Origin: Escherichia phage MiataMamis
Sequence record: PP925834.1
Strand: one strand, 5' to 3'
Length of the DNA stretch: 64,000 bases
The notes under the pieces were generated by a model. The model did no database searches. It had not been told where the DNA came from and saw only the letters and a list, made by a program, of their open reading frames with translations. Below are positions 57,684 to 60,463 of this stretch, piece after piece. The position numbers were made by a program, and so were the translations under genes. How positions within the stretch are numbered: position 1 is the first letter of the stretch; each line of letters begins with the position of its first letter.

Positions 57684-58619
57684 ATGACAAATGAGGAACG
57701 TATGATGAAGTATTTTAATGCAGATGACCTAGTAGACAAAGGTCTTGTAACCAGTCGGTATTATCCAGATCTTGGATTAAAGATCTATAAATATGCCAGA
57801 AAAGTATTCTACAACAATCTGTGGCATTTGTCTCCGCGTTTACTGGAGTGCCGAGGTATTGTTGTTGGTAATGAGGGGAATGTTGTGGCATGGCCTTTCA
57901 CAAAAGTATTCAACTTAGGAGAAAACTCCACCAACCTACCGGACAGTAAACTTGTTACTGCGGTAGAGAAAAAGAACGGATTCCTCGGTGTGGTATCATC
58001 TCATAAAGGTGAACTATTGTTCTCAACAACCGGGTCTCTTGATTCTCCATATTGTAACCTTGCAAAGGAAACCATCCAAGAGCAATGTGGTAATTTAGAT
58101 CTTATCAAGAAGGTTATGGGCAATGAAAACATGACATTCATGTTTGAAATTTGTCACCCTTCAGATCCGCATATTGTTCAAGAAGACCATGGCGCATATT
58201 TGATAGGTTGCAGATATAATGATTCTGGAATAATGCTACCAGAAGCAGCTTTAGATGGGATTGCCAAATACCTTGGTGCAAAACGTCCTCACACTGTGCG
58301 TGAAATCCCGTTCAGCTATGCAAAAGAATTAGCTGCAGAAACAAGGGGCGAAGGGTATATGATCCGTAAGCCTTACTACCCTTATGATCTGCAGCTGAAG
58401 ATCAAGTCTCCATACTATCTGGCACGGAAGGCAGTAATGAGGGGTAAAGCTTGGAAGATTTGGGATGATGATATCTTTAAACGTGTTGACGAAGAGTTTT
58501 ACGGTATGGTAAAATTTATTCGTAGCAACTATACAGAAGATGTGTGGAATTGCTTATTAGAGCAGGAGCGTCGTGAGATACTGGACTACTATTTCCACAA
58601 CGAGGACTATATGCAATGA
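57684..58619 (+). CDS. RNA ligase-like nucleotidyltransferase
   Basis: 311 aa; motif I KxNG (VEKKNGF), motif IV EGYMIRK, motif V KIKSP in canonical order; lacks the KxDGxR signature seen in the downstream DNA ligase. Confidence 0.65.
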   Translation: MTNEERMMKYFNADDLVDKGLVTSRYYPDLGLKIYKYARKVFYNNLWHLSPRLLECRGIVVGNEGNVVAWPFTKVFNLGENSTNLPDSKLVTAVEKKNGFLGVVSSHKGELLFSTTGSLDSPYCNLAKETIQEQCGNLDLIKKVMGNENMTFMFEICHPSDPHIVQEDHGAYLIGCRYNDSGIMLPEAALDGIAKYLGAKRPHTVREIPFSYAKELAAETRGEGYMIRKPYYPYDLQLKIKSPYYLARKAVMRGKAWKIWDDDIFKRVDEEFYGMVKFIRSNYTEDVWNCLLEQERREILDYYFHNEDYMQ

Positions 58620-58966
58620 AGAAGTGGATTGTGTGGCTTGATGATTTTAGAGATCCGTCAGATTATGGACTCACAGACGCTCTGTGGCTAAAGAATTCTT
58701 CTGAGTTTATGGATTTTCTTAATGATAAGAAAAAGCTCTACAGACGCGTATCTGAGTGGTATTTTGACAATGATCTAGGTGAAGTGCTTGAAGGGTACGA
58801 CTGCTTCTCTGCGCTAGAGGAGAAACTTGTATTCGGAAAGCCACCACTTATTGACAACGTGATTATTTTCGTGCATACTTCTAATCCATCGGCAGCTCGT
58901 AAATTTATGCTTGCTGCTGACTCATTCAAGAAGTTTGGAATAGAGATTAAACAAAACATCTACTGA
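58616..58966 (+). CDS. hypothetical protein coupled to the Sir2 gene
   Basis: 116 aa; start overlaps the RNA ligase stop (ATGA); ends 8 nt before the Sir2 start; no motif recognised. Confidence 0.5.
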   Translation: MKKWIVWLDDFRDPSDYGLTDALWLKNSSEFMDFLNDKKKLYRRVSEWYFDNDLGEVLEGYDCFSALEEKLVFGKPPLIDNVIIFVHTSNPSAARKFMLAADSFKKFGIEIKQNIY

Positions 58967-58974
58967 GGACACTT

Positions 58975-59736
58975 ATGCGACGACTGATTATTATCTCCGG
59001 TGCTGGTTTGAGCGCTGAATCTGGTATTCCCACTTTCCGATCTGGTAGCACTGCAATGTGGGAGAATTTCAGCATCGATGAGGTGTGCAACATCCACACC
59101 TTTGCCAAGAACTACTATAAGGTGCATGACTTTTACAATGCACGTCGTGTAGCTCTGGGCAGTGTTGATCCTAACCTTGCACATCTTCGGATCGCTGAGT
59201 GGTATTCCCGCTGGTCTGGTCGTGTGATCAACCTTACCACCAATGTAGATGATTTGCTGGAGCGTGCTGGTGTAAAACATGAAGATATTTTACATGTCCA
59301 CGGGTATTTGCCTGAAATCACCTACGAAGATGCTGAAGGTAATGATGTAATTAAAAATATCGGATACACGGAGGTAGATACAGGCAAGTATACCTGGGTT
59401 AAGCCCAATGTAGTGTTCTTCGGTGAGGTTGCTCCTAAGTATACAGACATGTATGACCTGTTGACATCTCTCACAAGCAATGATATGGTGATCCTAGTAG
59501 GTTGTTCTAACACAGTTATTAATTTTAACTGGGAATTGTTTCCTGCTACTTGTAAAGGCACAAAACTGCTGATTGTAAACAAGTATGACTCGCAGAGTGC
59601 AGATGGAAGTGGCATTTCACGTAGCGACCTTTATCAATATGAGGATCGCGGGATCCCTGTATGGTTTAACGGTGCTGTTGACGCTTTCTCTGATAAAGCA
59701 TTTATTGAAACTGTAGAAAACTTTATGGAACTTTAA
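58975..59736 (+). CDS. Sir2-family (sirtuin-like) NAD-dependent deacylase/ADP-ribosyltransferase
   Basis: 253 aa; sirtuin NAD-binding motif GAGLSAESGIPTFR, TNVDDL (TQNID-like), catalytic HG (LHVHGY), VVFFGE and GCS (GTS-like); the usual Zn-binding Cys pairs are absent. Confidence 0.8.
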   Translation: MRRLIIISGAGLSAESGIPTFRSGSTAMWENFSIDEVCNIHTFAKNYYKVHDFYNARRVALGSVDPNLAHLRIAEWYSRWSGRVINLTTNVDDLLERAGVKHEDILHVHGYLPEITYEDAEGNDVIKNIGYTEVDTGKYTWVKPNVVFFGEVAPKYTDMYDLLTSLTSNDMVILVGCSNTVINFNWELFPATCKGTKLLIVNKYDSQSADGSGISRSDLYQYEDRGIPVWFNGAVDAFSDKAFIETVENFMEL

Positions 59737-59749
59737 AAGGAGACCTTTA

Positions 59750-60463
59750 ATGCTGAATACTAAACTGATCGACAACCTGGAAAAACTGTCTCAGCCTGAA
59801 AACTACCTTTGGTCTGCCAACTGGGTGGAAAACTGGAACCGTGTGGCAGCTAAAGTGAAAAAATCATACACACCATTCGAATTACAGCTTAGCTTCATTG
59901 AGGAAGAGTTCAATGAGGTTTTGGAAGAGCTGGAGAAAGGTGATGGTGGAGATCACCTGCTAAAAGAGGCCTGCGATCTTCACGTTGTCACAAGTTATGC
60001 CGCTTATCTTGTTAATGATAATCACGAAAAGTGGTCAAACCTGTTTGATAATCCACGAGGTCTTAAGTTCAAAATCGGTGAGTTCTATGATACACTGATC
60101 GCTGCGAAAAACACATCCAAGCAAAGAGCGTCAGCTTACCGCCTAGCGGAGTTGTCAACAGCTTTGCTGTTCCAGCTTCGCGGCGATGTGTGTGGGATGA
60201 TGCGGAAGGTTCTCAAATCTAATGACAGTAAGTTTGCACGGATCAACCATCTACGATATTCTCACGGTGCCAGTGCAGATATGTCTACTGAATTGCTCAT
60301 AGAGTTAGAGATTGAAGATCTTGAGCGTCGTTTTGGTGGTCGCTACGAAGGTTTCGTTGCTAAAGAGGAGTTCTACAACGGTAATAAAGTTATTATATTC
60401 CTTGACAGTAAAGGTAAGATTATGAAGCCTTCGAGCTTCAAGGATGTAACAGAGTATATTTAA
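59750..60463 (+). CDS. MazG-like nucleotide pyrophosphohydrolase (tentative)
   Basis: 237 aa; acidic helix motif FIEEEFNEVLEEL...KEACDL resembles the ExxE(x)nExxD metal-binding pattern of all-alpha NTP pyrophosphatases. Confidence 0.4.
   Translation: MLNTKLIDNLEKLSQPENYLWSANWVENWNRVAAKVKKSYTPFELQLSFIEEEFNEVLEELEKGDGGDHLLKEACDLHVVTSYAAYLVNDNHEKWSNLFDNPRGLKFKIGEFYDTLIAAKNTSKQRASAYRLAELSTALLFQLRGDVCGMMRKVLKSNDSKFARINHLRYSHGASADMSTELLIELEIEDLERRFGGRYEGFVAKEEFYNGNKVIIFLDSKGKIMKPSSFKDVTEYI

Follow-up and report, generated by a model that had tools for sequence, protein, structure and literature searches.

In silico analysis of a 64,000-nt stretch of the genome of Escherichia phage MiataMamis (PP925834.1; the window), an rV5-like coliphage (Vequintavirus), distinguished a module of six genes organized in two divergent transcription units. 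Its distal part is composed of three adjacent genes encoding (i) a cREC protein, (ii) a zinc-free sirtuin (Sir2) and (iii) a probable member of the MazG superfamily, while the remaining genes encode an RNA ligase, a P-loop kinase and a calcineurin-like metallophosphoesterase. We consider it probable that the module is an RNA-repair system, and we give about even weight to the fuller reading, in which the three distal genes belong to a heal-and-seal module acting by the pathway proposed below. By analogy with Tpt1/KptA enzymes the sirtuin may act as an RNA 2'-phosphotransferase, a previously published proposal that we adopt tentatively and hold at somewhat less than even weight.

A first-pass annotation of the same DNA had singled out only the three distal genes, as a Sir2 cassette with an uncharacterised partner, and the three open reading frames (ORFs) lie where it placed them, all on the plus strand (Table 1). 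A 2022 paper (PMC9503650, section 3.7.3) already describes precisely this neighbourhood as "prototyped by Escherichia phage V5", and the module is thus known as an in silico prediction; the present work adds the anatomy of the operon, conservation at the level of residues, structure predictions, the facultative linkage of Sir2 and the acidic character of its clade.

Operon structure of the module

The plus-strand unit starts with the RNA ligase gene, whose stop codon overlaps the start codon of the cREC gene (ATGA). The cREC stop codon is separated from the Sir2 start by 8 nt with a GAGGA ribosome-binding site, which bears out the tight coupling of Sir2 to the upstream 116-aa ORF that had been noted earlier, and the Sir2 stop codon from the MazG-like ORF by 13 nt with an AGGAG ribosome-binding site. 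Seven nucleotides past the last stop codon, a hairpin with a 7-pair stem (6 G-C) and a 4-nt loop is followed by the T-rich sequence TTTACTTATT; a terminator is annotated at the equivalent position in phage Murica, in agreement with the previously described order of a MazG-like gene and a terminator downstream of Sir2. Given the overlapping or nearly abutting genes and the terminator hairpin, the ligase, cREC, Sir2 and MazG genes constitute one operon. The three-gene unit of the first-pass annotation was too short: the RNA ligase gene belongs to the same operon, and the divergently transcribed kinase and phosphoesterase genes complete the set. The position of Sir2 between an RNA ligase and a DNA ligase, also described in that annotation, agrees with the Pfam and PHROG profile matches by which both ligases were identified.

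In the region separating the two units, a consensus scan found a sigma-70-like promoter on the minus strand (TTGAAA-17-TATACT, positions 57640-57612; 10 of 12 consensus matches, as a consensus match only). On the plus strand the same scan found a perfect TTGACA -35 hexamer and no good -10 hexamer.

Table 1. Features of the probable RNA-repair module and its surroundings, with positions in the window
Feature	Length	Coordinates	Strand	Remarks
Calcineurin-like metallophosphoesterase	184 aa	56611..57165	-	length from the annotated ATG, start codon as in the phage Murica annotation; longest ORF reaches 57270
P-loop kinase	136 aa	57173..57583	-	GGAGG ribosome-binding site, ATG at 57583
Divergent intergenic region	100 bp	57584..57683		separates the ligase operon from the minus-strand kinase and phosphoesterase genes
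T4 Rnl1-type ATP-dependent RNA ligase	311 aa	57684..58619	+	first gene of the plus-strand operon
cREC protein	116 aa	58616..58966	+	Pfam cREC_REC; "uncharacterised partner" of the first-pass annotation
Zinc-free class III-type sirtuin	253 aa	58975..59736	+	Pfam SIR2
Probable MazG / all-alpha NTP pyrophosphatase superfamily protein	237 aa	59750..60463	+	PHROG 671
Intrinsic terminator-like hairpin		60470..60487	+	closes the ligase-cREC-Sir2-MazG operon
ATP-dependent DNA ligase		61090-62373		downstream of MazG; Pfam/PHROG profiles

Two small plus-strand genes, neither with an assigned function, separate the MazG-like gene from the DNA ligase gene (60526-60834; 102 aa; PHROG 7684, and 60821-61090; 89 aa; PHROG 14585). 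Genes of both families accompany the repair cluster in Mydovirus loci, at other positions, and are absent from the cluster of the phAPEC8/phi92-type phages.

Predicted RNA-end healing and sealing genes

The RNA ligase matches Pfam RNA_lig_T4_1 (E = 9e-15; 55.6 bits, cut-off 28.3) and PHROG 562 (E = 8e-66), and its nucleotidyl-transferase motif I is K96-K-N-G. Since its score against the NCBIfam equivalog (38) is far below the cut-off (242), it is a divergent family member and not an orthologue of T4 RnlA. The kinase matches Pfam AAA_33 (E = 1.7e-10), PHROG 2071 (E = 2e-58) and the polynucleotide kinase family PHROG 505 (E = 7.6e-10), and may act as a polynucleotide kinase on the 5'-OH ends of RNA. 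In PHROG 8238 it matches the N-terminal part and the RNA ligase of the locus the C-terminal part, which indicates that the two proteins are fused elsewhere. The metallophosphoesterase matches Pfam Metallophos_2 and Metallophos (E = 4e-6) and the phosphoesterase family PHROG 547 (E = 4e-52), and is a candidate 2',3'-cyclic or 3'-phosphate end-healing enzyme. Judged by these profile matches, the 5'-kinase, the 3'-end phosphoesterase and the RNA ligase, co-encoded within 2 kb in the two divergent units, represent a predicted classical heal-and-seal RNA-repair triad.

Seven phage tRNA genes are located 3-4 kb from the module. One member of this cluster is a 99-nt tRNA-like gene on the minus strand (53104-53202), 3.4 kb from the module, for which ARAGORN gives a 4-base anticodon, "atcc", and which is labelled tRNA-OTHER Asp|Gly in the GenBank record of phage Murica. 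Its alignment to the Rfam tRNA family (37.5 bits) instead shows an anticodon stem of 4 bp and a loop of seven nucleotides (UUUUUAA), and hence the anticodon UUU (Lys); the variable region, about 26 nt long, contains a separate hairpin. tRNA-Lys(UUU) is a classical target of anticodon nucleases, and this gene may be relevant to the nearby RNA-repair module.

A zinc-free sirtuin with an intact catalytic site

The 253-aa protein matches Pfam SIR2 (PF02146; E = 6.9e-28; 98.2 bits, cut-off 24) over profile positions 1-178 of 180, and PHROG 2162 (E = 1.5e-108). Every motif of the sirtuin catalytic and NAD-binding signature quoted in the first-pass annotation is present: GAGLSAESGIPTFR (residues 9-22), TNVDD (89-93), HVHG (107-110), VVFFGE (146-151) and GCS (176-178). 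In an alignment of 31 diverse clade members, G9, A10, G11, S16, G17, F21, R22, Y54, R57, N90, D92, H109, G110, F148, F149, E151, G176, S178 and N202 are invariant, and all NAD-binding and catalytic residues, including the catalytic histidine (H109), are kept. The Zn-binding cysteine pairs are missing, as had been recognized: the protein has only three cysteines (C38, C177 and C193) and no CxxC pair, and the segment corresponding to the zinc ribbon of CobB (residues 110-146) contains no cysteine; cysteine pairs are absent from the entire clade alignment.

The closest solved relative by sequence is E. coli CobB (E = 3e-21). The predicted structure (mean predicted local distance difference test, pLDDT, 89.9; predicted template-modelling score, pTM, 0.87) has the sirtuin fold, composed of a Rossmann domain and a small domain. 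Foldseek placed CobB, Sir2-Af1 and SIRT5 at the top (TM ~0.75); the model had 293 matches in the PDB at E <= 0.001, and the best 50 of these 293 are all sirtuin structures. Where a zinc ribbon would be expected, two strands of the model (110-118 and 124-128) form a beta hairpin without zinc. The earlier description of the protein as a "minimal Sir2 fold" was rejected, because the model retains the full small domain with this hairpin at the zinc-ribbon site; its 253 aa make up a zinc-free sirtuin core of full size.

The phage motif FYNARR, which contains Y54 and R57, aligns with FYNARR of CobB. The Y-x-x-R pair is the mark of class III sirtuins, in which it binds the anionic acyl carboxylate (Y102/R105 of SIRT5). 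By its sequence relationships, the phage sirtuin is classified as the deacylase type (class III, CobB/SIRT5), not as a defence-type NADase. The clade is phage-only among the records seen and, with charge judged by the isoelectric point (pI) of the whole protein, acidic throughout (pI 4.6-5.8; 4.9 for the 253-aa protein).

These properties make an ordinary NAD-dependent lysine deacylase of the CobB/SIRT5 type, probably with a preference for acidic acyl groups such as succinyl or malonyl, the main rival to an RNA-acting sirtuin, albeit one that we consider rather unlikely. Such an enzyme would remodel host or phage acylation, for example by activating acetyl-CoA synthetase or by deacylating a phage enzyme or its receiver-fold neighbour, and its position among RNA-repair genes would be only loosely related to its activity. 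Its nearest relatives in sequence and fold (CobB, SIRT5 and Sir2-Af1) are all characterised deacylases; invariance extends to all catalytic residues of a deacylase, to the Y-x-x-R pair typical of class III and to the FGE loop, which forms the acyl-lysine tunnel; and a pI of 4.9 fits protein substrates better than RNA. Zinc-less phage sirtuins of the KVP40-like type were noted in 2016 and interpreted as protein deacetylases (PMC5107563), and E. coli CobB is reported, in reference 97 as cited by PMC9503650, to deacetylate the receiver protein CheY, a relevant case given the receiver fold of the neighbouring cREC. On the other hand, the zinc module, which is part of the substrate cleft in canonical sirtuins, is lost, the host encodes CobB already, and the phage gene is tightly packed in a ligase operon.

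The cREC and MazG-like proteins

The 116-aa protein encoded directly upstream of Sir2 matches Pfam cREC_REC (PF20274; E = 9.6e-14; 52.3 bits, cut-off 27), a family described as "cyclic-phosphate processing receiver domain", with cREC defined in PMC7824862. A precomputed PF20274 match is present in 54 of 55 homologues, the exception being a 63-aa fragment. The predicted structure is a CheY-like receiver fold, and the protein regarded in the first-pass annotation as being of unknown fold thus acquires both a family and a fold. The model contains a conserved acidic pocket formed by D9 and D10 (after strand 1) and D51 (after strand 3), with T88 and S89 following strand 4. Invariants specific to the family are D53, which forms a DxD pair, and the H87-T-S-N-P91 motif, while the invariant K96 sits in helix 4 of the model, away from the position of the receiver lysine. 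By analogy, the DxD pair may be likened to the two residues that serve HAD phosphatases as nucleophile and acid/base, and the H-x-S motif to that of 2H phosphoesterases. The gene adjoins RNA ligase, kinase and phosphoesterase genes in 15 of 26 loci, and no histidine kinase was seen among the scanned cREC neighbours.

The 237-aa protein matches the nucleotide pyrophosphohydrolase family PHROG 671 (E = 5.7e-22). Against Pfam PRA-PH this protein alone scores below the cut-off (E = 0.089; 13.7 bits, cut-off 21.3); among 17 members of its family, PRA-PH is matched by all 17 (best E = 4.8e-6) and MazG by 15 (best E = 5.9e-5). The acidic helices expected to bind metal (EEExxE and ExxD) are kept; E51, E52, E53, E56, E59, D76, N158 and D159 are invariant in the family, and E73 is present in at least 90% of its members. 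A PDB profile search gave only chance-level matches (E = 0.79) and no solved relative was found in it, so the MazG assignment is based on the PHROG and the family-wide Pfam matches. The C-terminal third (approximately residues 165-237) lies outside the pyrophosphatase helices and has no Pfam match, and it is strongly conserved (G197-R-Y, F217-L-D and K221-G-K-I-M-K-P-S-S-F230).

Conservation of the locus and gene neighbourhoods in related phages

The window shares 97-99% nucleotide sequence identity with rV5-like phages. The region 56600-62400 is 99% identical to the corresponding regions of Escherichia phages EmilHeitz and naswa and is matched by 122 phage records with 80-99% identity, all but one above 90%, and the 253-aa protein has 951 relatives at E <= 1e-5; the three-gene feature is therefore not a chance one. 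The gene is already annotated as Sir2-like in more than 100 public records. Several coliphage records have two features named "putative Sir2-like protein" under the match to this region; as only one ORF here has a SIR2 profile match, one of the two labels is probably a carried-over mis-annotation. Eighteen records labelled "Campylobacter phage" (e.g., MG065654 and MG065666) are about 97.8% identical to the region, which suggests mislabelled hosts or contamination.

For comparison, 73 loci encoding a Sir2 relative and 26 encoding a cREC relative were used. Phosphoesterase, kinase, ligase, cREC, MazG and DNA ligase genes lie within 6 kb of Sir2 in about 13 of the 73 Sir2 loci, in rV5-like phages and Mydovirus, and the metallophosphoesterase accompanies ligase, kinase and cREC in 13/73 Sir2 and 15/26 cREC loci. 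In the Mydovirus relatives the seven genes are kept within about 7 kb on a single strand in the order phosphoesterase, ligase, cREC, kinase, Sir2, DNA ligase and MazG, so that both order and strand are shuffled with respect to the rV5-like phages. Phages of the phAPEC8/phi92 type (~150 kb) carry a cREC-phosphoesterase-ligase-kinase-DNA ligase-MazG cluster without Sir2 (loci L081 and L083-L089, where L083 is phage vB_vPM_PD06). Their Sir2 gene (L032, L034-L036, L055 and L057, on the same contigs) is located about 32 kb from the cluster in 6 of 6 contigs, next to a C5 DNA methylase gene and genes of PHROG 8514 and 9509, with functions not assigned. In T5-like phages, a gene for a HAD_SAK_2 "Swiss Army Knife RNA repair" phosphatase is placed directly 3' of Sir2 in 28 loci, with no cREC gene near Sir2. 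The "Sir2 + partner cassette" of the first-pass annotation is consequently not a fixed pair. cREC, MazG, ligase, kinase and phosphoesterase form a stable core of which Sir2 is a facultatively linked member, and Sir2 is paired with RNA-end-processing enzymes in two different ways, i.e., with cREC and ligase or with HAD_SAK.

This variability bears on the lysine deacylase described above from both directions: the separation of Sir2 from the repair cluster in the phAPEC8/phi92-type phages favours it, and the association of Sir2 with two different RNA-end-processing partners across phage groups speaks against it. The same holds for the view that there is no functional coupling at all, according to which early/middle "nucleic-acid metabolism" neighbours would be co-inherited and the sirtuin, cREC and MazG proteins would act independently. 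In its favour, all loci in which Sir2 adjoins cREC belong to one subfamily, Vequintavirinae, the next related group has its Sir2 gene at another genomic location, and a replicative-type DNA ligase and two small genes ride in the same cluster. We nevertheless judge it improbable, because within Vequintavirinae the genes remain clustered although their order and strands have been rearranged, and because they overlap or leave almost no space between them. Moreover, the RNA ligases found next to cREC come from two unrelated families (a distant relative in L090 adjoins a non-homologous RNA ligase of PF09414), and the T5-like phages combine Sir2 with another RNA-repair phosphatase.

Several loci have neighbours of other kinds. 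In two phages of approximately 148 kb (L046, positions 5079-5561, and L052), a 161-aa PHROG 652 protein with no Pfam match is encoded between the kinase and Sir2, at the cREC slot, and may be a functional replacement of cREC. In a T5-like locus (L003, 7142-8478), Sir2 and HAD_SAK_2 are followed by two paralogous DUF7415 proteins, with an anaerobic ribonucleotide reductase upstream. Jumbo-phage Sir2 relatives (L061 and L072) share 37-42% identity over partial alignments and have mostly unannotatable neighbours; the published 2H/Nudix-cREC context was not confirmed at these two loci. In L072 a metallophosphoesterase gene lies two genes upstream of the Sir2 relative, and in L061 (a 279-kb jumbo phage; positions 6713-7195) a nucleoside 2-deoxyribosyltransferase-like gene lies directly 3' of it. 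In L099 (a 204-kb phage; positions 7501-8244), a distant cREC relative is followed by an NAD synthase gene. The neighbours in L061 and L099 point to NAD-related contexts outside RNA repair.

Such contexts are in line with the suggestion of the first-pass annotation that the three genes form an NAD/nucleotide-manipulating or counter-defence module. In this reading, RNA repair would play no part; the sirtuin would be an NAD+ glycohydrolase or an ADP-ribosyltransferase acting on host targets or signalling nucleotides, and alarm signals that are nucleotides or are derived from NAD would be destroyed by its partner and by MazG. Both NAD+ hydrolysis and ADP-ribose transfer are within the reach of sirtuin domains (reviewed in PMC9503650), the predicted substrates of cREC include cyclic ADP-ribose phosphate species in addition to RNA ends (PMC9503650; PMC7824862), and the RNA and DNA ligases of the phage are ATP-dependent and would be unharmed by low NAD+. 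However, the analogy to bacterial defence Sir2 NADases fails at the family level. A PADLOC-DB scan of all three proteins (E <= 0.01) gave no match, on which ground an identity with known defence systems was rejected, and the match to the defence-type family SIR2_2 (PF13289; E = 0.097; 13.2 bits) is below the cut-off (24.5), the nearest relatives being of the CobB/SIRT5 deacylase type. Moreover, the catalytic histidine and the acyl/anion pocket, unneeded by a plain NADase, are strictly conserved, a Macro, NADAR or Nudix partner is absent, and the operon starts with an RNA ligase gene. We therefore regard this explanation as very unlikely, and weaker than that of a deacylase. NAD-dependent counter-defence in general was nonetheless a fair direction, as RNA repair counters host RNases.

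Proposed RNA-repair pathway

In the RNA-repair pathway that we favour, a host metal-independent RNase (an anticodon nuclease or a toxin) would cut tRNA or other RNA, leaving 2',3'-cyclic phosphate and 5'-OH ends. The P-loop kinase would phosphorylate the 5'-OH, the cREC protein, as a receiver-fold phosphoesterase, and/or the metallophosphoesterase would open the cyclic phosphate, and the Rnl1-type ligase would seal the break. Should opening of the cyclic phosphate yield a 2'-phosphate, the outcome known from tRNA ligation in fungi and plants, this phosphate would stay at the junction, and the sirtuin could remove it with NAD+, the phosphate oxygen attacking C1'' of NAD+ with release of nicotinamide. 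The ADP-ribose by-product would then be degraded by cREC, the phosphoesterase and the MazG pyrophosphatase.

The 2'-phosphate of RNA as the sirtuin substrate, the direction of cREC opening and the role of MazG, which we likewise infer, were first proposed in PMC9503650. There, the sirtuin was suggested to remove 2'-phosphates like KptA/Tpt1, and cREC and other phosphoesterases to open cyclic phosphates or to process the ADP-ribose cyclic phosphate by-product. In PMC11417386, the Tpt1 reaction is described as a two-step one, in which a nucleophilic oxygen attacks C1'' of NAD+ and the ribose 2''-OH subsequently forms a 1'',2''-cyclic species; the sirtuin chemistry would parallel these two steps, and the anion-binding Y54/R57 pair suits a phosphate substrate.

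The RNA-repair reading is supported by the operon structure, by the cohesion of the gene set despite its shuffled order and orientation, by the second RNA-end partner of Sir2 (HAD_SAK), by the PF09414 RNA ligase and the NAD synthase beside distant cREC relatives, by the kinase-ligase fusion in PHROG 8238, by the intact NAD-binding and catalytic residues of Sir2 and by the seven tRNA genes nearby. Several points weigh against it. As Vequintavirus and Mydovirus are both members of Vequintavirinae, the synteny is partly inherited and not independently selected. The distance of Sir2 from the cluster in the phAPEC8/phi92-type phages makes it dispensable for cluster integrity, and in the T5-like loci neither the ligase, nor cREC, nor any other gene of the repair set was found within 6 kb of Sir2. 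The kinase, metallophosphoesterase and ligase would by themselves suffice for repair, as in T4 Pnk/Rnl1 or bacterial Pnkp, so that the 2'-phosphate route is not required; a phmmer search with the ligase, meant to distinguish a 2'-phosphate-requiring (Trl1) from a T4 Rnl1 type, found no relative in the PDB. For an RNA-binding enzyme, the acidity of the whole Sir2 clade is unexpected. Finally, no experimental test of phage sirtuins (including those of Vequintavirus and T5) or of cREC was found in the literature, and PMC9503650 and PMC7824862 describe the sirtuin and cREC proteins as experimentally uncharacterised. With these points considered, an RNA-acting sirtuin, which would either remove the 2'-phosphate at the repaired junction or ADP-ribosylate RNA phosphate ends, together with a cREC turned cyclic phosphodiesterase, is a possibility to which we lend limited credence, short of an even chance.

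If this were true, a sirtuin acting on a nucleic-acid phosphate and a receiver domain acting as a phosphodiesterase would represent new chemistry for both superfamilies, and the unrelated Tpt1/KptA would have been functionally replaced by a sirtuin. It would also reveal an NAD-dependent branch of phage tRNA repair, i.e., a fungal-style "2'-phosphate" route directed against host anticodon nucleases, relevant to the escape of large lytic coliphages from defences that cleave tRNA. The genes occur in easily grown rV5-like E. coli phages, some of which are in the BASEL collection, and the question is therefore directly testable.

Comparison with known systems

The module is the same system as the type 2 sirtuin-centred neighbourhood of Escherichia phage V5 and Proteus phage Mydo (Iyer, Burroughs, Anantharaman, and Aravind, 2022, Viruses 14:1977, PMC9503650). 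The published gene list, comprising a T4-like tRNA ligase, cREC, sirtuin, nucleotide kinase, MazG pyrophosphatase and calcineurin-like phosphoesterase, is the same here.

Among characterised sirtuins, CobB and SIRT5 share with the phage protein the NAD-binding and catalytic residues and the Y-x-x-R pair, and are its best matches in sequence and fold. The phage Sir2 differs from them in the absence of the zinc cysteines, an identity of only ~27% over the fold, and a gene context of RNA-end processing rather than metabolism. The defence SIR2 NADases (ThsA, DSR1/2, SIR2-HerA and SIR2-pAgo partners) have in common with it the Rossmann-type SIR2 fold and the use of NAD+, whereas the phage protein belongs to PF02146 and not to PF13289, is a standalone protein without a sensor domain and is encoded in the ligase operon of a lytic phage.

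The likeness to Tpt1/KptA lies in the proposed NAD+-dependent removal of a 2'-phosphate after the action of a cyclic phosphodiesterase, a kinase and a ligase, as in fungal and plant Trl1-type ligation, with the difference that the part of cyclic phosphodiesterase would fall here to a protein with a receiver fold and not to a 2H enzyme. A Pfam scan of nine proteins revealed no family of the Tpt1/KptA type, and the 253-aa protein matched SIR2-type families only. The relation to Tpt1/KptA would thus be a functional analogy and not membership, since the folds are unrelated (Tpt1 belongs to the ADP-ribosyltransferase superfamily).

Like T4 Pnk and Rnl1, which act against the anticodon nuclease PrrC, and like bacterial Pnkp, the module combines an Rnl1-family ligase, a 5'-kinase and a phosphoesterase, here in a lytic coliphage. 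In contrast to T4 Pnk, kinase and phosphatase are separate proteins, and the phosphatase is a metallophosphoesterase, as in Pnkp, instead of a HAD domain. The cREC, sirtuin and MazG genes are additional components without a counterpart in T4.

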